From the NCBI GenBank assembly GCA_041694515.1, contig JASMSZ010000054.1:1074-65073 (forward strand): a stretch of 64,000 nucleotides of DNA, read 5' to 3'. The DNA is from Halanaerobium sp. GTDB lineage: Bacteria; Bacillota; Halanaerobiia; Halanaerobiales; Halanaerobiaceae. Position numbers and translations under genes: made by a program. Shown piece after piece: positions 10,383 to 64,000 of the stretch (the first letter of the stretch is position 1; the number at the start of each line of letters is the position of its first letter). The notes under the pieces are model-generated. The model had not been told where the DNA came from, did not search any database, and saw nothing but the letters and a program-made list of their open reading frames with translations.

Positions 10383-11378
10383 TTAAGCGGTCTCTCTTTT
10401 AATTAATTTTAACTCTAACTCTTGATGATAAATCTCATTTAACTGGCCGTTAATTGCTTTTAATAAAACTTCAATCGATAGGTGCCCGAGCTGGTACATC
10501 GGCTGCCAGATAGTTGTTAACTTTAAATACTTAGCAAGTTCGATATTATCATAACCAACTACCGCTATATCCTCGGGAGCAGTTAAGCCTTCTTCTTCCA
10601 TAGCCTGCAGGACTCCAATTGCCTGATTATCAGAAGCAGCAAAAACAGCTGCAGGCCATTCCGGCTCAGGTAGTTCTAATATTTCCTGCATTGCCTGATA
10701 ACCGTCTTCTGTATGGAAATCCCCAAATTTAAGCAGATCAGGATTTAAACTAAGATTATTTTTTGCTAATATATTTTTTACACCTTTTAAACGATTGATC
10801 CCATGCTGACTATCTTTAATACCATTGACAAAAGAAATATTTTGATGTCCCTGTTTAATTAAATAAGCAACAGCCATTTCTGCACCCTTAACATCATTTA
10901 AATGAATAGAGTGAAAATCAGTACTATCCTCATCTGCCAAAACTATTGGAATCTCCTCACTCAATAAAGACTGGTAGTCATGTTCGCAAATATCCATAGT
11001 AACTGCTGCAATACCATCAACCTTTTTACTGTGAACAATATCCAGTATTTTATCCATCATCTGCTGATCTTTATCTATTTTATATAAAATTAGATCTATT
11101 CTTTCCTCTTCTAAAGCATCCTGAATACCTTTTAAGACTTCCACAAAAAAGTGATCAATAAATGTGGGAACAATAACACCGACTGCATTTGCTTTCTGGC
11201 TGGCCAGATTTTGGGCAACTTTATTTGGTCTGTAATTTAATTCTTTCATCACTTTAAGAACCTTATCTCTGGTTTCATCTTTTACTTTACTGCTGTTATT
11301 TAAAACTCTGGATACAGTTCCAATCCCAACACCGGCTTTCTCTGCTACATCATAAATATTAACTTTATCTTTTGCCAT
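10383..11378 (-). CDS. LacI-family transcriptional regulator
   Basis: NIYDVAEKAGVGIGTVSRVLN helix-turn-helix, YRPN hinge, sugar-binding domain. Confidence 0.93.
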   Translation of the reverse strand: MAKDKVNIYDVAEKAGVGIGTVSRVLNNSSKVKDETRDKVLKVMKELNYRPNKVAQNLASQKANAVGVIVPTFIDHFFVEVLKGIQDALEEERIDLILYKIDKDQQMMDKILDIVHSKKVDGIAAVTMDICEHDYQSLLSEEIPIVLADEDSTDFHSIHLNDVKGAEMAVAYLIKQGHQNISFVNGIKDSQHGINRLKGVKNILAKNNLSLNPDLLKFGDFHTEDGYQAMQEILELPEPEWPAAVFAASDNQAIGVLQAMEEEGLTAPEDIAVVGYDNIELAKYLKLTTIWQPMYQLGHLSIEVLLKAINGQLNEIYHQELELKLIKRETA

Positions 11379-39681: not shown

Positions 39682-40317
39682 CTAATTGGTTTTTAGTTTA
39701 AAATTATTACTTCTGTATTTTTGATATAGTTCTTTAAAATCCAGGTCAACAGTAATTTCTTGATAGTCAGAGGGATAACGATAAATTTTTTCTGGTACTA
39801 GATCAAACAAATTACGCAGTCCAGCTTCACCTTCAAGTTTTAAAACAATTTTTCTAAATTTATTTTTTATGAGTACCGGGTGGCCTTTTTGTCCCTGGTA
39901 CTCAGGTAGAAAAATTTCTGCTTCAAGTTCTAAACATTTTTGATAAAATTCACTGTATATCTCAGGCCCAATAAATGGCTTATCTGCCAGGGTAAAAAGC
40001 AGATATTGATTTTCTGCTGGCAGCTGGGTTAGTGCCTTTTTAACTGAAGACATCATCCCTTTTTGATAATCATCATTTTCCACAATTTTAAGAATTCCAT
40101 TTTTCAACTCATTCCTGTATTTTCTCAGCAAATACTTTTTGACTTTTTCCTTTTCAGCACCAACTACAACTTTCAGCTCCTCATCCACAATTTCTGCTGC
40201 CAGCAGATTATCAATAGTTTTACCAAGTATAGTATTCTCCTCTTCCCAGTCCAGAAGCTGCTTTAATTCACCCATTCTTTTTGCCTCTCCGGCCGCCAGA
40301 ACAACTGCTGTCAGCAT
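39682..40317 (-). CDS. MocA-like molybdenum cofactor nucleotidyltransferase
   Basis: VVLAAGEAKRMG..KQLL, GMMSSV, ADKPF and GHPV. Confidence 0.85.
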   Translation of the reverse strand: MLTAVVLAAGEAKRMGELKQLLDWEEENTILGKTIDNLLAAEIVDEELKVVVGAEKEKVKKYLLRKYRNELKNGILKIVENDDYQKGMMSSVKKALTQLPAENQYLLFTLADKPFIGPEIYSEFYQKCLELEAEIFLPEYQGQKGHPVLIKNKFRKIVLKLEGEAGLRNLFDLVPEKIYRYPSDYQEITVDLDFKELYQKYRSNNFKLKTN

Positions 40318-56307: not shown

Positions 56308-57105
56308 TTATTTTTTGGCCACTACAGAACCAAAGTAAAATAAAGCTGCTGTAATAATAATCACCGCTCCCGAGGGCAGATCATAATAATAAGAAAAAGT
56401 TAAGCCGCTGAAAGAAAAAATAAGTCCAAAAATAACAGCCAGCCCCATGATTTTTTTCAAGTCATCTGTATACAAGCGAGCTGCTGCCGGAGGTGCTGTT
56501 AACAGGGCAATGACCAGTACTATCCCGACAACTCTAATTAAAATTACTATTGCAAGAGCAATCATCACAAATAAGAAATTTTCTAAAAGATTTGACTTAA
56601 CACCAAGAACTCGCAAAAATTCCTCATCAAATAAATAGGCTTTCCAGTAATTAAAAAGACTGCTGATAGCTAAAATCATAAATATAGTTAAAGCTGCCAT
56701 CAGCCAGACATCCATTCTGCGAACTGTTAAAATATCTCCAAATAAATAAGAAGAAATATCAGGTGGATATCCCGGAGTAAAACCAATAAATAAGACACCC
56801 AGGGCCATTCCTAAAGACCAGAACATTCCAATCAGAGTATCAGAACCGGTTCCGATTTTACGACGAATAGAGGCAATAGCCAGTGAGGCTGCAACTGCAA
56901 AACCAAAAGCTCCATAAATTGGTTCAATATTTAAAAGATAACCCAGTCCAATTCCGCCAAAGGAAGTATGGGCAATTCCGCCACTCAACATTACCAGTTT
57001 TTTCTCAACAATAATTGTTCCAATTAAACCACAGGCAATACTGGCCAGGACTGCTGCAAAAAAAGCATTCTGCATAAATTGATAGTTTAAAATTGCATTA
57101 ATCAT
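56308..57105 (-). CDS. znuB: Zn/Mn ABC permease
   Basis: GIAHTSFGG, YLFGDIL and LLTAPPA; likely start ATG 57105. Confidence 0.9.
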   Translation of the reverse strand: MINAILNYQFMQNAFFAAVLASIACGLIGTIIVEKKLVMLSGGIAHTSFGGIGLGYLLNIEPIYGAFGFAVAASLAIASIRRKIGTGSDTLIGMFWSLGMALGVLFIGFTPGYPPDISSYLFGDILTVRRMDVWLMAALTIFMILAISSLFNYWKAYLFDEEFLRVLGVKSNLLENFLFVMIALAIVILIRVVGIVLVIALLTAPPAAARLYTDDLKKIMGLAVIFGLIFSFSGLTFSYYYDLPSGAVIIITAALFYFGSVVAKK

Positions 57106-57871
57106 TATTTTCCTCCTCTCCATGAGGGGCAAATACATGGTGAGGATGGCCGTGAGCAATTAAATCTACCGGACAGCCAAAAACCTGTTCTGTTGTCTCC
57201 TGGTCCAGATATTTATCACCATGATGATAAAGCTTTTCGTTTAAACAGGCCAGAGTATCAAAATAAGAAGAAACTGCAGCCAGATCATGGGTTGCCACAA
57301 TAATTGTTTTATCCTCATTTAATTTTTTTAACAATTCGTAAATTTGGGAGGTAGAGCTGGCATCAACATTTGCGGTTGGCTCATCTAAAAGCAGAATCTC
57401 AGGTTCGACAGCCAGTCCTCTGGCAATCAAAACCCGCTGCAGCTGACCTCCGGAAAGTTTACCGATCTGTCTATCTTTAAGCTGGAGCAGGTTTAGCTGA
57501 TCTAAAACTGCCTCAGCCTTATTTATATCTTCCTTTTTATACTGATGAAAAAATCTGACCCTGCCCCCCAGCCTGGCCGTCAGGACAACATCCAGAACAC
57601 TAATTGGAAAATCACGATCAAAATTAGAGATCTGAGGCACATATCCAATTTTATCAACTGCCTGGCTGAGAGGATTTCCAAAAACTTTGACCTCTCCTGC
57701 CTCAGGTTCAATTAAGCCCAGGATAACTTTTAAAAGTGTGGTCTTCCCTCCACCATTAGGACCAATAATTCCTAAAAAAGCACCCTCTGCAACCTGAATA
57801 CTAATTTCTCTTAAAGCAGGTATTTTACCATATTTAACTGAAACATCTTTCAATTCAACTGCATAAGCCAC
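57098..57871 (-). CDS. znuC: Zn/Mn ABC ATPase
   Basis: GPNGGGKTT, LSGGQLQR, LLDEP and His-rich tail HGHPHH. Confidence 0.9.
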   Translation of the reverse strand: MAYAVELKDVSVKYGKIPALREISIQVAEGAFLGIIGPNGGGKTTLLKVILGLIEPEAGEVKVFGNPLSQAVDKIGYVPQISNFDRDFPISVLDVVLTARLGGRVRFFHQYKKEDINKAEAVLDQLNLLQLKDRQIGKLSGGQLQRVLIARGLAVEPEILLLDEPTANVDASSTSQIYELLKKLNEDKTIIVATHDLAAVSSYFDTLACLNEKLYHHGDKYLDQETTEQVFGCPVDLIAHGHPHHVFAPHGEEENND

Positions 57872-58818
57872 TACTGATCATCTCTTTCCGCAAGTACAGC
57901 TGCTATTTTTTCTGCCATTACTTTTAAGTTATCGAGGTAATTGGGAGCTAAGGGATTGAGCTGTATAATTTCTCCACCGAGTTCTTCGGCAGCCGCTCTT
58001 GCCCTGCTGCTGTCAATTTCTGCCTGATAAAAGACATTTTTTATTCCCTGCTGCCGGGCATACTTTATAATTTCCTGAAGATAACGGGGACCGGGCTCTT
58101 TACCTTCTTTTTCTATTGCCAGCATTTCTAAACCATAATGTTCAGTAAAATATCCAAATGAAGGATGATAAACCAGAATTTCCTGGCCCTGATATTCCGC
58201 TAATAATTCCCGGTTTTCCTGATCCACAGCAGTCAGTTTTTCTAAATATTGTTCTGCGTTTTCTTTAAATTCCGCTTCATATTTGGGCAGGATTTCTATT
58301 AACTCATCTCTCATTATTTCCACCATCAGACTAACTCTGGCTGGAGAAAGCCAGATATGAGGATCTCTGCCTCCCTGATGACTGTGTCCATGATCATCAT
58401 TTTCATCCTCCTGATACTCATCCTCAGCATCTTCCCCGGCTTTTTCTTTATCTCCAAAATAACGGTGAGGATATTTTGATTCAATTCTTTCAAATAATTT
58501 TACAACTTTAAGCCCTGACATTTCTTCTGCCCGGGGCAAAATATTCTGCATATCTGCAGGTACTCCCATCGAAAAATAGATGCTCGCTTCATTAAAGGCC
58601 CGCATTTCTGCAGGTGAGGGAGCATAATTAGAAGGACTAAAGCCCCTGGGAATCATTTCTACAGCCTCTACCCTGTCACCTGCAATTGCTTCTACCATCT
58701 CCAGCTGGGGTACAATTGTTACAGCCACTGCGGCTTCAGCTGCAGCTGCAGAAAAAGATCCTGCCAGAAGCAGTATTAGTATTATAAAAAGCAAAAATAA
58801 TCTTTTGCTCGAACACAT
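57871..58818 (-). CDS. znuA: Zn ABC substrate-binding protein
   Basis: His/acidic loop HGHSHQGGRDPHIWLSP, YHPSFGYF and NPLA. Confidence 0.9.
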   Translation of the reverse strand: MCSSKRLFLLFIILILLLAGSFSAAAAEAAVAVTIVPQLEMVEAIAGDRVEAVEMIPRGFSPSNYAPSPAEMRAFNEASIYFSMGVPADMQNILPRAEEMSGLKVVKLFERIESKYPHRYFGDKEKAGEDAEDEYQEDENDDHGHSHQGGRDPHIWLSPARVSLMVEIMRDELIEILPKYEAEFKENAEQYLEKLTAVDQENRELLAEYQGQEILVYHPSFGYFTEHYGLEMLAIEKEGKEPGPRYLQEIIKYARQQGIKNVFYQAEIDSSRARAAAEELGGEIIQLNPLAPNYLDNLKVMAEKIAAVLAERDDQ

Positions 58819-58840
58819 AAAAATCACCTCTTTCTATTTT

Positions 58841-61800
58841 TTAAATAATATTTCTCAGCAGTAACTGGAGCACTCCAAAAATACCGCCAAACCAGCCGTA
58901 CTGTTTTAAGTGAGCAAAATATTTGCCGGCAAAACTATCAAAAACTTCTTCTATTTCCGCCGGATTCATTTTCCTGACTTCAGCAGCTGTTAATTCTTTT
59001 AACTCCAAACTTTTAAGCAGAGCTTCCGAATTAGCCTTAAAGCTGTCAACACCAGCTTCTACAAATAAAGCCAGCAGATATTCCAGACTTTCTCTATTCA
59101 TTTCCTGTTCCAGAGTCTCAGCTAACTTTGTAATCTCCTCTGCACCTGTATTAACAAACAGCTTATTTACCTCATCAGTTTTTAATAATGAAAGTAAATT
59201 TGACTTAATTTCTGCAAATATTTCAGCATCAAACAAATCTGGATCAATTAACTGGATTTCTTGCAATAGGCTTTTTAATTCCTGGTTAATTATTTTTAAA
59301 TCAACTGTCTTCAGCAGCTGCAGAGTCTCTTTTTTAATATTTTCTGCTGTAAATAAGTCTTTCAACAACAGTAGAATTTTCAATTTTTGCTCCAGGTTAA
59401 GCTGCTGCTTAATAAATTTTTCCACTGCCTCAGCTCTTATTTCTAAATTGAGAGACAGCAATTCCTGCTTTTCTTCTTTAAATACTAAATCAGTCAGCTC
59501 AGCCAGCGGCTGATCACTTAGATAAAGCACTTCGGTTAACAGCTCAGAACCCTGATCAGTACTAACAAAGTTCTTTAATATCTGATTCAGCTTTAGACTT
59601 TCCGCTGCAAACAGCTCTTTAGATGCCAATTTTTCCAACAAATTAAAATAAAGTTCTGCTAATTTATCTCTTTGATCAACAGAATATTCATTTTGAAATT
59701 TATTAAAAACACGCTTAACCACCGAATCCACAAATTCATCCAGATCAGCCATATAAATAGCGCCGGAGATCAGAGTATTTTTAAGCACTCCTCCCTTTTT
59801 CTCCTTTTCATTTTCTATAATTTCGTCTTTTTTGAAATTAATTAAACGAGCAATATTCTCCTGCTGCTCAAAAAACAGATTTAAAGACTGATCCAGATAG
59901 TAATCAGAATCCTGCTTCAATAATTTTAGAGAATAATTCTTTAAATCAAATTCTAATTCCCTATCCAGCAGCTGTGGTGCCAGGAATTTAAAGAAGGGAT
60001 AAAATTCCTTATTTTTAAGAAGCTGTTTCAGCTGACTGGAGTTTAGATTAATTTTATATTCACCATTTACAAAAACTGACAGCTGTTCCAGACTAAATCC
60101 AGAAACAATCCGGGATTCCACTTCTGAAAGAAAATTTTCTTCCTGACTTAAATATTTTTCAACTGCAGCTCTAAAATCAAGGGAGTCCATTTTTTGAGTC
60201 AGTAAGTTATTTATTTGTTTCCCCAAAGCTCCAACTAAAGCTTTAAAATCAGCTGCCTCCACTTCCGATAAAAGCTGGTCCATGTTATTTAGGGAAGACT
60301 CTGCCAGCATTTCATTTTTATCTCTCAGCAGTTCAAAAAACTGCTGATAATCACTGGCTGCAAAATATTCCAGTGTTCTCCCCTTTATTTCGGAGCGATT
60401 ATTTTCTATAATTTCTGCTGCTGAATTGGCTTTAAGCAGTTCTTTTTCCACAAACTTACCCATAGAATCAGCAAAACGACTTCTGTTTTTGGCAACAACT
60501 CCCGGTGTAAAGGGGATTCTGGCTCCCAAAATATTTTTCTCCTGATAGGGATGAAAAATCATCCAGATTGCTAAAACATTGGTCAGCCAGCCCACTCCAC
60601 CATATAAAACAGCAGAACTTAAATAATCAACCCAGACTGGTGAGGCATTAAAAATTGCAGTTTCGGCTCCACTGAGCGAAAAGATAATCCCTGCAGCCGC
60701 TCCCAGGAGAGCTCCTAAATAAGTAATCGGTTTTAATTCCTGCCCCATAAAATCTTCGATAGCTGTCTGAACTTCCTGATCAGAAAGTTGATGTAAATTT
60801 GCAGATGCTGCCTGAGCTACCTTACCCTCCAGAAGCTGAGGTAAATTATTATAAAAGAAGGCAGTGATTGATTCAGTTAAGTCTGCAGCAGCATTCGGAT
60901 CATCCTGAAACAAACTGTATAAAGATTTAATTCCTTTATCACTCAGCTCTAACTGCAGCTGAGTGAGATAGTTTTCTATTCCATTTTTAAATTTAGGTCC
61001 AGAATTATTAACTTCTTTATTTAAAAGTCTGAAGAAGTTTTGATTAAGATAAGCTGCCCCCTCTGCTGCCAGAAAGTTCTGTTCTGACAGCAGTCGGTAA
61101 ACTTCTCTGGCAATTTCATCCTTTTTTAGAGCAATTTTTTCCTGACTGAGCAGCTCTTCCAGTTTTAGCTCCATTAAATAATCTATCAAAATCTCAATTG
61201 AGTCGAAATCACTGCTAATTTTTTCGAGAGAAGTAAAGATCAGCTCAACAATTTTATCTGTCAGCATTTCTTCGGCAAAAATTTCTTCTGAGAAAATTTC
61301 AATTATTTTTTGATCTTCATACTGCTGATAAAACTCCAGCACTGTTTTACCCATACTTTCTATAATTTTATCCAGATCAATTTTCGGTAGAATTTTATTT
61401 ATTCTAATTTCTTTAATTTGTGCTGTCAGCCCAGCAGCCAGTTTTTGATCATCAGAACTTAATTCTGCTGCTAAATAATCTTTAAGATGAGTCAGCGGCA
61501 GACCATACTCCTCTATGTTTTCTTGATATTTGCTGTAAATTCCCTGCCGACTCATTGCTTTAAAGCCTGTACTTGCTTCAATCTCTTCCTCAACTGCCTC
61601 CAGAATCAGATTATTTAACTCAGATTCTTCCGACTCCAAAAATTTCAGCAAATCAGTTTCTGCAGTATAAATAAACTTAGATAACTCCTGTTTTAAATCT
61701 GATTCCAGTTCTTCTGTAAAAAAATCATCTACAAGCAATTCCGAATTATCCAGTTCAATTTTCAAATTGACAAGTATTTCTTTTAAAAGATCATGCAGAT

Positions 61801-62593
61801 CTGAACTGAATAAAATTTTCTCCAGCTCACTGCTGTCTTTGATCAGATCGGAAATTTTAAGTTTTTTAATTTCAGCTAATATACTCTGACTGATTTTTTC
61901 TAAATTAAAAAGCTGCCTCATCTCAGTTTTAAAATCTTCTTTTTTAGACACTTCTAGATTCTGATAATTGTTCCTAAAATACTGTGCAATCTCCTTAACC
62001 AGCTTTTTCAGCTGCAGCTGACTTTCTTTATTTAAAAGCTGAGATAAATTTTTAGCTTTCAGCTGTTCATAAAAACTGAGAAGTAAATTTTCCACGCTTT
62101 CTGCAGCTTCTGCTTTATTTATTACTTTACTAAAAACTTCCTTCAGCAGTTTTTGCTGTCCGGAATCCGAAATTAATTGATTCAGCTCTTGCTTTTCTAA
62201 TTCTTTACTGCCTGCTGCCAGGAACTCTACTCCGGCTCCTGCTGCAGCTGAGCTTAGAAGTTTAAAATTTTCTTTCCAGCCAGGAAGTTCTCCCAGCTTA
62301 AAATTGCCACTGCGCTGTTCCAGATAAATATTCAAAAAGTCAGCCAGACTCTGGTGGAAATTCTGCTTGAATTCCGGTCGCGAAAACTCCTCTTTTAATG
62401 TCTGATGATTAATCAGATCTCTTTCTACCAGAGTAGAAATACTGTCAATAAACTCATCTTTGGTTTTAATTACCACTCCCCCAAGTGGGCCGTACTCTTT
62501 GAAAATCATTTTTAAGGCCAGATTATTGGTTAAATAGCCGGTTACTGCTCCTGTACCTGCTGCTGAAATAATTGCTAAAAGATCTAGAACCAT
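58841..62593 (-). CDS. Giant tandem DUF445-family protein (two complete DUF445 units)
   Basis: Twice: N-helix GYLTNNLALKMIF / GWLTNVLAIWMIFHP...PFTPGVV and C-helix ELKPITYLGALLG / HLKQYGWFGGIFG, flanking long acidic helical regions. Confidence 0.8.
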   Translation of the reverse strand: MVLDLLAIISAAGTGAVTGYLTNNLALKMIFKEYGPLGGVVIKTKDEFIDSISTLVERDLINHQTLKEEFSRPEFKQNFHQSLADFLNIYLEQRSGNFKLGELPGWKENFKLLSSAAAGAGVEFLAAGSKELEKQELNQLISDSGQQKLLKEVFSKVINKAEAAESVENLLLSFYEQLKAKNLSQLLNKESQLQLKKLVKEIAQYFRNNYQNLEVSKKEDFKTEMRQLFNLEKISQSILAEIKKLKISDLIKDSSELEKILFSSDLHDLLKEILVNLKIELDNSELLVDDFFTEELESDLKQELSKFIYTAETDLLKFLESEESELNNLILEAVEEEIEASTGFKAMSRQGIYSKYQENIEEYGLPLTHLKDYLAAELSSDDQKLAAGLTAQIKEIRINKILPKIDLDKIIESMGKTVLEFYQQYEDQKIIEIFSEEIFAEEMLTDKIVELIFTSLEKISSDFDSIEILIDYLMELKLEELLSQEKIALKKDEIAREVYRLLSEQNFLAAEGAAYLNQNFFRLLNKEVNNSGPKFKNGIENYLTQLQLELSDKGIKSLYSLFQDDPNAAADLTESITAFFYNNLPQLLEGKVAQAASANLHQLSDQEVQTAIEDFMGQELKPITYLGALLGAAAGIIFSLSGAETAIFNASPVWVDYLSSAVLYGGVGWLTNVLAIWMIFHPYQEKNILGARIPFTPGVVAKNRSRFADSMGKFVEKELLKANSAAEIIENNRSEIKGRTLEYFAASDYQQFFELLRDKNEMLAESSLNNMDQLLSEVEAADFKALVGALGKQINNLLTQKMDSLDFRAAVEKYLSQEENFLSEVESRIVSGFSLEQLSVFVNGEYKINLNSSQLKQLLKNKEFYPFFKFLAPQLLDRELEFDLKNYSLKLLKQDSDYYLDQSLNLFFEQQENIARLINFKKDEIIENEKEKKGGVLKNTLISGAIYMADLDEFVDSVVKRVFNKFQNEYSVDQRDKLAELYFNLLEKLASKELFAAESLKLNQILKNFVSTDQGSELLTEVLYLSDQPLAELTDLVFKEEKQELLSLNLEIRAEAVEKFIKQQLNLEQKLKILLLLKDLFTAENIKKETLQLLKTVDLKIINQELKSLLQEIQLIDPDLFDAEIFAEIKSNLLSLLKTDEVNKLFVNTGAEEITKLAETLEQEMNRESLEYLLALFVEAGVDSFKANSEALLKSLELKELTAAEVRKMNPAEIEEVFDSFAGKYFAHLKQYGWFGGIFGVLQLLLRNII

Positions 62594-63633
62594 TTTTTCC
62601 TCTTAAAATAAACTAATTGGATTACAGCAATCACCAGCATTAAAAACATTACAGCAGGATAGGCCAGCTCATGTTCTAATTCCGGCATATATTTAAAATT
62701 CATACCATAAACTCCGGCAATAAAAGTCAGGGGGATAAAAATTGTAGAAATTACTGTTAAAAACTGCATGACTTCGTTCATCTTGTTGCTTTTATTGGAA
62801 AGATAGATATCCAGCATACTTGACAGCATATCCCGGCTGACATCAATCTCATCCATCAGCTGTCCAATATGATCATAAACATCACTTAAATAGTAATCTG
62901 TTTCTCTTTTTATTAATGGCGATTCTACTCGATAAAGATTACCAAAGATAGTATTTAAAGGCCAGATAGTCTTGCGCAAAAAAACTATTTCCTGTTTCAA
63001 ATCCTGAATAATCTCTAAAGTATCAGGTCCTGTTTTAGCAGCAACAACTAAATCATCCAGTTCCTCTAAAACTTCTTCGTTTCTTTCTAGAATGTGAAAA
63101 TAATTATCTACTATTGAATCCAGTAAGGAATAAAATAAATAATCAGCTTTCTTTTTTCTGATCTGTCCTTTATTTTCTTCAATCCTAATTCGAACAGGAT
63201 TAAAATCATCACCTCGAGCTTCCTGAAAAGTAATAACAGTGTTTTCCAGCAAAATTAAACTCACCTGTTCTGACTGAATATATTCTCCCTGATAACTCAG
63301 CATATCTAAAATTGTTATAATGTAATCATCAAACTCTTCCTTTTTAGGCCGCTGGCGGGTATTTGTAATATCTTCTAAAGTAAGTGGATGTAAATCAATC
63401 GATTTTCCCACTTCTTTAACCAATTCCACATCATGAATTCCAGTAATATTAATCCAATTGACATAATCTTCTTCCAGTAATTCTAACGAAAAATCTTCCA
63501 CTGTTTTTTTCTCAATAAAATCTTCATTAAACTGTATTAATTCAATTTCGGCATCTACTTTTTTTTCAATCCCGTGTAAAGTTCCGGGTGTATGCCCAAT
63601 TTCACTTGACTTAACTCGCGAAAATTTTCTCAT
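62584..63633 (-). CDS. corA: Magnesium/cobalt transporter CorA
   Basis: IGHTPGT, HPLTLEDI, N..MQFLT and YGMNFKYMPEL signature. Confidence 0.95.
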   Translation of the reverse strand: MRKFSRVKSSEIGHTPGTLHGIEKKVDAEIELIQFNEDFIEKKTVEDFSLELLEEDYVNWINITGIHDVELVKEVGKSIDLHPLTLEDITNTRQRPKKEEFDDYIITILDMLSYQGEYIQSEQVSLILLENTVITFQEARGDDFNPVRIRIEENKGQIRKKKADYLFYSLLDSIVDNYFHILERNEEVLEELDDLVVAAKTGPDTLEIIQDLKQEIVFLRKTIWPLNTIFGNLYRVESPLIKRETDYYLSDVYDHIGQLMDEIDVSRDMLSSMLDIYLSNKSNKMNEVMQFLTVISTIFIPLTFIAGVYGMNFKYMPELEHELAYPAVMFLMLVIAVIQLVYFKRKKWF

Positions 63634-63724
63634 TTGACCCCTCCTTTATTAAAGTATCTATTTTTTAGCAGTTTTGCTTATAAAAGTAATTATTTTATTC
63701 TATTTTAATTAAGAATCATTTTTG

Positions 63725-63907
63725 ATATCCACATTTTGTGGATAACTTGTTGATAACTACAGGTTTTAATCCACAATTTTTGTTGATTAATTGTTAACAA
63801 CTGTGGATAAAACACCTGTTTTGTTAGTAACTTGTGGATAACTATCTATTTAAACCTACTTATCCACTTAACTTTAAGATTCCAGAAAAGATAAAAATTT
63901 ATCCACA
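63725..63907. promoter_or_regulatory. DnaA-box cluster
   Basis: Perfect TTATCCACA boxes (either strand) at 63737, 63802, 63833 and 63899; 1-mismatch boxes at 63725, 63748, 63767 and 63860. Confidence 0.85.
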
Positions 63908-64000
63908 ATTTGCGGGTCAAAAACTTTTCCCCGATAGTGATTGAATTCTCTAACTATTTCTTTTTCCTCCAGTGCACCAAAATAATACTTATTTTTGGAA
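63874..64000 (-). CDS. 3' end of a probable HD-GYP domain protein (gene starts beyond the window)
   Basis: Manual translation ...ALEEKEIVREFNHYRGKVFDPQIVDKFLSFLES*, resembling the HD-GYP G..FDP.IVD.FL C-terminus. Confidence 0.6.
   Translation of the reverse strand, partial: SKNKYYFGALEEKEIVREFNHYRGKVFDPQIVDKFLSFLES

Follow-up and report, generated by a model that had tools for sequence, protein, structure and literature searches.

A conserved cluster of DnaA boxes upstream of a metal-transport operon in Halanaerobium: a candidate origin-proximal site for gene control and DnaA buffering

Introduction

In bacteria without SeqA and Hda, DnaA-box clusters outside the replication origin are thought to be a main restraint on re-initiation. 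Experiments on such clusters have centred on a few models, among them Bacillus subtilis, Escherichia coli and Streptomyces coelicolor. The E. coli locus datA needs IHF and promotes the hydrolysis of ATP-DnaA, and the E. coli sites DARS1 and DARS2 have a positive role since they reactivate DnaA. The core of a DARS site has opposed boxes. We know of no DARS-type activity described in Firmicute-like bacteria, or of any outside Proteobacteria.

In B. subtilis the DnaA-box clusters (DBCs) are located at yydA-yycS, ywlC, ywcI-vpr, sda, gcp-ydiF and trmE-jag (Okumura et al. 2012, PMC3245932; Smith & Grossman 2015, PMC4447404). These six extra-origin clusters regulate neighbouring genes, deletion of all six leads to early initiation, and a single cluster restores control best when it is near oriC (PMC3245932). 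Such clusters have been called usual near oriC in Firmicutes and Actinobacteria, where they occur by different genes in each species (PMC3245932). The Firmicute origin itself is bipartite (Pelliciari et al. 2021, PMC8287927), and a DnaA box combined with DnaA-trios is the described unwinding module of these origins (PMC8287927).

Here we describe a cluster of DnaA boxes in a draft Halanaerobium genome of 2.34 Mb (35% G+C, 156 contigs). It lies in a stretch of 64,000 nucleotides, contig C54:1074-65073, which was analysed as a whole and is called the window below. Like the B. subtilis clusters it is intergenic, has many consensus boxes outside oriC, is origin-proximal in complete relatives and belongs to a Firmicute-like genome that encodes YabA. 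It is also located immediately upstream of an operon, although the promoter in this case is a consensus match only. By analogy, the dual role shown in B. subtilis, with control of neighbouring genes and restraint of initiation, would be expected for the Halanaerobium cluster. Where B. subtilis has six clusters, Halanaerobium has one dominant cluster, and its partner is a metal-transport operon. Bacillus clusters occur by different genes per species (PMC3245932), whereas locus and geometry in Halanaerobium are fixed across the genus and largely across the family. The near-invariant spacers set it further apart from the Bacillus clusters. With datA the locus has in common that it is a single main extra-origin site with about five high-affinity boxes, near oriC and replicated early. 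There is no sequence relationship with datA, which lacks such a link to a promoter, and inspection of the Halanaerobium cluster by eye revealed no exact IHF consensus. The kind of element is thus already known, but in this bacterial family it is apparently not yet described; a literature search found no relevant published work linking Halanaerobium and DnaA.

Results

Boxes and setting of the cluster

The cluster consists of four perfect and four one-mismatch copies of the DnaA box TTATCCACA between positions 63725 and 63907 of the window, which amounts to eight boxes in 183 bp (Table 1). No perfect box occurs in the remaining 63.8 kb of the window. The original prediction of four perfect and at least four near-perfect boxes in about 185 bp was thus accurate, and it had also correctly placed the cluster next to an AT-rich stretch (63660-63724, 85% A+T) and between the end of an HD-GYP gene and corA. 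Across the whole draft genome (2,338,875 bp) 65 boxes are perfect, and boxes that deviate from the consensus by no more than one base number 877, a density of 0.375 per kb. At this rate some 0.07 boxes are expected per 183 bp, against the eight observed. A Poisson estimate from the genome rate gave a probability of finding at least eight of ca. 1e-14 per site and ca. 3e-8 across all genome start positions. With a box density so far above the genomic background the original prediction stands on this point. At least five boxes within 250 bp were found at three loci of the genome only, which are the present cluster and two clusters flanking dnaA on contig C63. The 9-mer consensus of the cluster also makes up the genome's own oriC.

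Boxes 1 and 2 form an inverted, head-to-head pair with an offset of 12 bp and together give a near-perfect 9-3-9 palindrome. The two ends of the cluster differ in setting: box 1 overlaps the −35 hexamer of a candidate promoter and box 8 is part of a coding sequence.

Table 1. Features of the DnaA-box cluster and its surroundings. Positions refer to the window unless a contig is named.
Feature	Position	Strand	Description
DnaA box 1	63725..63733	+	ATATCCACA, 1 mismatch; overlaps candidate operon −35
DnaA box 2	63737..63745	-	perfect TTATCCACA
DnaA box 3	63748..63756	-	TTATCAACA, 1 mismatch; offset from box 2 by +11 bp, head-to-tail
DnaA box 4	63767..63775	+	TAATCCACA, 1 mismatch
DnaA box 5	63802..63810	-	perfect
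DnaA box 6	63833..63841	-	perfect
DnaA box 7	63860..63868	+	TTATCCACT, 1 mismatch; peripheral, less conserved
DnaA box 8	63899..63907	+	perfect; within 3' coding end of PAS-GGDEF-HD-GYP gene, encoding ..IVDK..
Two weak box-like sites	63781..63800	-	plus-strand letters TGTTGATTA (2 mismatches) and TGTTAACAA (3 mismatches)
Weak box-like site	63822..63830	-	TGTTAGTAA, 3 mismatches; 11 bp ahead of box 6
Palindrome TTGTTAACAA	63791-63800		spacer before box 5; invariant within Halanaerobium; not retained in g13 and g12
Inverted repeat AAAACA-CC-TGTTTT	63809..63822	.	between boxes 5 and 6; invariant in the genus
Left-edge motif	63701..63724	-	genus consensus AATAATCATTTTTG; abuts box 1
Candidate sigma-70-type operon promoter	−35 63731-63726; −10 63707-63702	-	−35 TGGATA (inside box 1), 18-nt spacer, −10 TAAAAT
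corA leader	63634..63700	-	AT-rich; 45% mean pairwise identity; absent in species without corA
corA	62584-63633	-	Pfam CorA, E = 5e-63; starts left of cluster
DUF445 gene	58841-62593	-	1250 aa; overlaps corA stop; multiple DUF445 stretches (Pfam)
znuA	57871-58827	-	ORF and Pfam
znuC	57098-57871	-	ORF and Pfam
znuB	56308-57159	-	ORF and Pfam
PAS-GGDEF-HD(-GYP) gene	3' end 63874..64000	-	611 aa; extends past window; right of cluster
Plus-strand operon	2-6 kb right of cluster	+	putative sensor-regulator pair and putative transporter
Bipartite oriC	G000 C63:8760-8801 and 10449-10841 (L001/L071)		outside window; box clusters on both sides of dnaA

Conservation in the Halanaerobiaceae

A 441-bp query of the locus was compared with 18 Halanaerobium species genomes and the locus was found in 16 of them. 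The two genomes without a match are 63% and 74% complete, and the DUF445 gene is missing from them too. Five strong boxes are present with at most two mismatches in 18/18 Halanaerobium genomes examined, and the box offsets of 0, +12, +42, +77 and +108 are the same throughout the genus. Individually, box 1 has at most one mismatch in all 18 Halanaerobium genomes and keeps its position in the sister genus g13. Boxes 2 and 4 each stay within one mismatch of the consensus in 16/18 genomes and within two in 18/18, and box 5 occurs in 18/18 and is retained in g13 as well as in a further genus, g12. The remaining boxes vary more: box 3 is found with at most two mismatches in 14/18 and box 7 with at most one in 10/18 Halanaerobium genomes. 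Box 8, present in 13/18, is missing in genomes G009, G008 and G013, and its loss coincides with a replaced or divergent PAS-GGDEF-HD-GYP gene.

The mean pairwise identity of the core (63725-63841) across the genus is 0.87, with 0.97 for the boxes and 0.79 for the spacers. Elsewhere at the locus it is 0.45 in the corA leader, 0.47 just after box 6 and 0.675 in neighbouring coding DNA. For the oriC clusters, compared in 15 of the same genomes, values of 0.76 and 0.82 were obtained. The core is thus conserved to a level equal to or above that of oriC and is under purifying selection. The presence of the cluster in close relatives likewise leaves the original prediction unrefuted.

The genes around the cluster are less stable. 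In G008, G013 and G016 corA is lacking and the cluster directly precedes the DUF445 gene, and in G009 and genus g13 a cation-diffusion-facilitator gene takes the place of the HD-GYP gene. Though flanking genes were gained, lost or replaced, the cluster is always found upstream of the (corA-)DUF445 operon in the Halanaerobiaceae genomes examined. This includes the two further Halanaerobiaceae genera in which the module was detected, g13 and g12. Both have the box 4-35 bp-box 5-31 bp-box 6 spacing, with the 31-bp offset between boxes 5 and 6 constant across all three genera, and g13 has the inverted pair. In three other families of the order the DUF445 homologue is not preceded by the cluster. 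The metagenome-assembled genome G015 contains two diverged copies of the locus (C151:487-933 and C25:5504-5951). They probably represent two strains binned together; the bin has 5% contamination.

Fine structure of the core

Between the boxes we found weak box-like sites. The sites TGTTGATTA and TGTTAACAA are 11 bp apart and lie 21 and 10 bp ahead of box 5, in a spacer that is nearly invariant within Halanaerobium. At the weak site before box 6 the letters TGTTAGTA are retained in g12 too. When the weak sites with two or three mismatches are included, sites in the TGTGGATAA orientation start at 63737, 63748, 63781, 63792, 63802, 63822 and 63833, with steps of 11, 33, 11, 10, 20 and 11 bp. Because these steps are multiples of 10-11 bp, the same-orientation sites all point to the same side of the DNA helix. 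A distance of 42 bp separates the two boxes of opposite orientation at 63725 and 63767. The spacing is suggestive of a phased DnaA array, with the number of weak sites just modestly above background (three phased sites against about 1.3 expected by number, at a background of 1.4% per position per orientation).

The spacers also contain two palindromic elements (Table 1). The inverted repeat AAAACA-CC-TGTTTT is retained with a CA centre in g13 and is lost in g12. Binding of a second factor, a DNA bend and a preference of DnaA for certain flanking bases are candidate roles for this repeat. A 23-mer, TGTGGATAAAACACCTGTTTTGT, is identical in all 18 Halanaerobium genomes, and its exact matches among 185,579 species genomes are confined to Halanaerobium. 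The invariant spacers, the AAAACA-CC-TGTTTT repeat above all, are not accounted for by DnaA boxes alone.

Left edge and adjacent operon

The left-edge motif has a mean pairwise identity of 76%, against 45% in the leader, and is retained in g13 and g12. The candidate promoter of the operon was obtained as a consensus scan match that scores no better than shuffles of the region. A TAnAAT-like hexamer at the −10 distance is present in ca. 10 of the 18 genomes, as read by eye from the alignment. The candidate promoter is not common to all species because the DUF445 start abuts box 1 in some; about 20 nt separate box 1 from the DUF445 ribosome-binding site in G008 and G013. A Fur/Zur box at the left edge (AATAATCATTTTT) was considered as well. 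The site in the present genome (G000) has five mismatches to TGATAATNATTATCA. This reading was dropped because TGATAATNATTATCA, when up to two mismatches are allowed, turns up 162 times in the AT-rich genome. The sites in G008, G003, G002 and G013 are nearer to that motif and could still be Fur/Zur boxes. A terminator scan returned the box 1/2 palindrome as its single plus-strand match and nothing convincing after the right-hand gene, and an Rfam E-value scan of 63300-64000 gave sub-threshold chance matches only.

The genes of the corA-DUF445-znuACB operon (56308..63633, minus strand) are tightly packed or overlapping. The 1250-aa DUF445 protein is translationally coupled between corA and znuA, and its gene is the most constant partner of the cluster. 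DUF445 homologues of about 1250-1440 aa are encoded in 47 of 72 Halanaerobiales genomes. In g13 (L058 in G044 and L059 in G043) a conserved small ORF of 24 codons takes the place of corA between the cluster and the DUF445 gene. Its product is MKNKINCRFILLNDLTGDLFNGYK or MKNNNFCRFVIIKNIKGVLKNGCK, depending on the genome; the ribosome-binding site is strong, and the ORF overlaps with the start of the DUF445 gene.

Chromosomal position in relatives

In one complete congener the locus is 153 kb from dnaA, an angle of 21 degrees, and in a second it is 218.6 kb away, an angle of 34 degrees. The locus is on opposite sides of dnaA in these genomes and the operon is co-oriented with replication in both. 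Groups of at least three perfect boxes are found only at oriC and at this locus in the two complete congeners; the locus has two in G008.

Some other box arrangements were noticed. An isolated inverted pair of perfect boxes, 36 bp apart, occurs mid-chromosome in G009 (C1:1555427-1555471). Two complete genomes of other Halanaerobiales families have two tandem perfect boxes 20 bp apart on the terminus side, at ca. 173 and 193 degrees: L094 (G023:C1:1236400-1238600, at ~1012-1079) and L095 (G036:C1:2091800-2094100, at ~1018-1102). Each pair has a dif-like site nearby, at a distance of some 15-40 bp (TTGCGCAAAATGTGTATTTTACGAAG for one pair, TTTCGCAAAATAAGTATTTTGCGAAG for the other), and a third box follows about 200 bp further on. 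The best dif-like palindrome of the present genome (C34, ~39717-39746) has no adjoining boxes.

Comparison with the replication origin

The only genuine dnaA of the genome is on contig C63, in the order gyrB-recF-dnaN-dnaA facing rnpA-yidC-jag-mnmE-mnmG, and the GC skew at this gene flips cleanly from about −0.25 to +0.22. The dnaA-dnaN spacer contains an AT-rich tract followed by TAGTAGTAATAGTAGTAG, GGGC, TGTGAATA and TGTGGATAA, with six TAG/TAA DnaA-trios, a GC cluster and tandem boxes, and so corresponds to the unwinding module known from Firmicute origins (PMC8287927). The box positions of this oriC are conserved across the family. The corA-side cluster resembles such a bipartite origin in that it uses the same 9-mer, has a similar density and conservation, and contains an inverted pair like that in the cluster upstream of dnaA. 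It differs in that it is without trios, GC cluster, conserved AT-rich element, skew reversal and dnaA/dnaN, all of which are found at the C63 oriC.

The original prediction had noted that no dnaA flanks the cluster and that there is no clear run of DnaA-trios. Both statements hold: the 75-kb contig carries no dnaA, and no TAG/TAA trio run of three or more is present in C54 64500-65200. Near the homologous cluster in 18 relatives no run of four or more was found. The other Bac_DnaA Pfam matches in the genome are weak AAA+ matches only. One of them, of 249 aa on C128, had been taken as a candidate Hda-like protein and proved to be IS21 IstB beside IstA. This IS21-family IstA/IstB pair is at C128:12641-14495 (L002 102-1956), and IstB is the second-best Bac_DnaA Pfam match of the genome.

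The T-run after box 4 (ATT TTT GTT) would satisfy the most permissive trio criterion in print, which asks for three 3'-NAN-5' repeats no further than 16 bp from a box (PMC8287927). In DNA of 74% A+T this rule has no discriminating value. A conserved AT-rich unwinding element is likewise lacking at the locus. The 85% A+T stretch is only 45% identical in the genus and is missing in species whose next gene begins some 35 bp away from box 1 (G008 and G013). Since the corA leader is unconserved and disappears together with corA, it is not a DNA-unwinding element.

The GC skew gave no support for an origin at the cluster either. Values of about −0.2 were found on both sides without a lasting reversal, and a reversal was seen at dnaA on C63. 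A positive skew occurs only 2-6 kb to the right, where it coincides with a 4-kb plus-strand operon of three genes, and it then returns to between −0.17 and −0.29. Almost all genes of the window had been noted to point away from the cluster, in agreement with a fork moving from right to left. This argument fails, because minus-strand genes are found to the right of the cluster as well, so that a fork passes through the site and does not start there. We conclude that the cluster is not a replication origin.

We also considered whether the cluster arose by duplication of part of oriC. When it was aligned locally with the two oriC clusters, only the inverted box pair was recovered, with a score within the range of shuffles. 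In a global alignment of the box 4-6 module with C63 10606-10700 the score exceeded all but 3 of 500 spacer shuffles. This resemblance is suggestive, and we claim no paralogy.

Discussion

The cluster fits the B. subtilis DBC kind on every feature that can be tested with sequence data, and we therefore read it as an origin-proximal DnaA-box cluster. The explanation that we prefer, to which we assign a probability of roughly 0.55, is that this non-origin, B. subtilis-type cluster would gate the adjacent promoter and buffer DnaA. DnaA would assemble on the array, in a process that is probably cooperative and favours the ATP form. Boxes 1 and 2, at the left end, appear to overlap the probable −35 of the promoter of (corA-)DUF445-znuACB, so that DnaA occupancy would gate the operon. 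With its many boxes the platform would also retain a pool of DnaA at a distance from oriC. The locus, 150-220 kb from dnaA in the complete relatives, would be duplicated soon after initiation and would then buffer DnaA. Occupancy by DnaA, the direction of any effect on the promoter and any effect on initiation timing are inferences. YabA, a DnaA regulator of Firmicutes, is encoded in the genome, and control of DnaA in this organism is therefore probably of the Firmicute type. Among the three readings put forward in the original prediction, a titration or regulatory site and a DnaA-controlled promoter survive every test run and are not mutually exclusive, and the unusually placed origin is rejected.

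The main rival is a pure transcriptional operator for (corA-)DUF445-znuACB that has no measurable effect on initiation, which we consider possible though doubtful. The strict tie to one operon in three genera agrees equally well with titration and with a simple operator function: the cluster is directly upstream of the DUF445 operon each time and its other side is variable. The overlap of boxes 1 and 2 with the candidate −35 would also agree with an operator. Furthermore, families of the same order keep DUF445 without the cluster, which makes the tie lineage-specific and like regulatory rewiring. However, five to eight boxes over 110-180 bp with invariant spacing far exceed the needs of an operator, and so does conservation at or above the level of oriC argue against one. 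In the two complete genomes, moreover, there is no other major cluster outside the origin, and this one is origin-proximal whichever replichore it is on. Also against a pure operator, the B. subtilis clusters that serve as operators restrain initiation too (PMC3245932).

A wider proposal is that the cluster serves all Halanaerobiaceae as a replication-control device. At a single site of the datA or DARS kind, DnaA would form a fixed higher-order complex together with a second factor bound to AAAACA-NN-TGTTTT, and this would couple a Mg/Zn-uptake operon with a giant DUF445 protein to the replication cycle. We put this forward tentatively and regard it as rather unlikely.

Improbable, in our view, is a DARS-like positive element, in which the inverted pair and a third box drive nucleotide exchange on ADP-DnaA and so stimulate initiation. 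When compared with the three-box core of DARS, the cluster offers an inverted pair and one further box. Box 3 stands beside the head-to-head boxes 1 and 2, in loose resemblance to the E. coli core, and the two share a compact core, oppositely oriented boxes and conserved flanks that hint at accessory factors. The same inverted pair occurs in the oriC cluster upstream of dnaA, a point that may be taken in favour of such an element. Against it, most of the conserved boxes (4-6) are outside the pair. There is neither homology nor sequence similarity to DARS1 or DARS2.

It is very improbable that the 9-mers are bound mainly by another protein that reads a box-like or palindromic motif, with DnaA binding incidental. 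This idea draws on the near-perfect palindrome of boxes 1 and 2 and on the two further invariant palindromes in the spacers. Against it, exact matches to the complete 9-bp DnaA consensus occur as single boxes in both orientations, and the boxes are the best-conserved columns and are built from the 9-mer that also builds oriC. The boxes are retained across genera and the spacer palindromes are not, TTGTTAACAA being confined to the genus and AAAACA-CC-TGTTTT lost in g12.

Finally, a second or alternative origin is hardly tenable: an oriC-like box density, the adjoining AT-rich stretch and a T-run that passes the loosest trio rule (PMC8287927) are outweighed by the lack of trio runs of three or more here and of four or more in 18 relatives, against six trios at oriC, an AT-rich stretch that is unconserved and missing in species without corA, a skew of about −0.2 on both sides (bar the 4-kb plus-strand operon) against the clean reversal at dnaA, and the complete bipartite oriC elsewhere in the genome.

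Conclusions

The origin-proximal DnaA-box cluster that we prefer as an explanation calls for some caution in annotation, because origin predictors that rely on box density might report a spurious second oriC in Halanaerobium genomes. With one dominant cluster, a small genome, a frozen geometry and conservation at or above the level of oriC, this genus is a good comparative case. It allows the question which box order, spacing and spacer features matter for the assembly of DnaA away from the origin to be addressed by comparison. For the organism itself, the proposed arrangement predicts that a metal-uptake operon with an uncharacterised DUF445 protein of 1250 aa would be part of the DnaA regulon.
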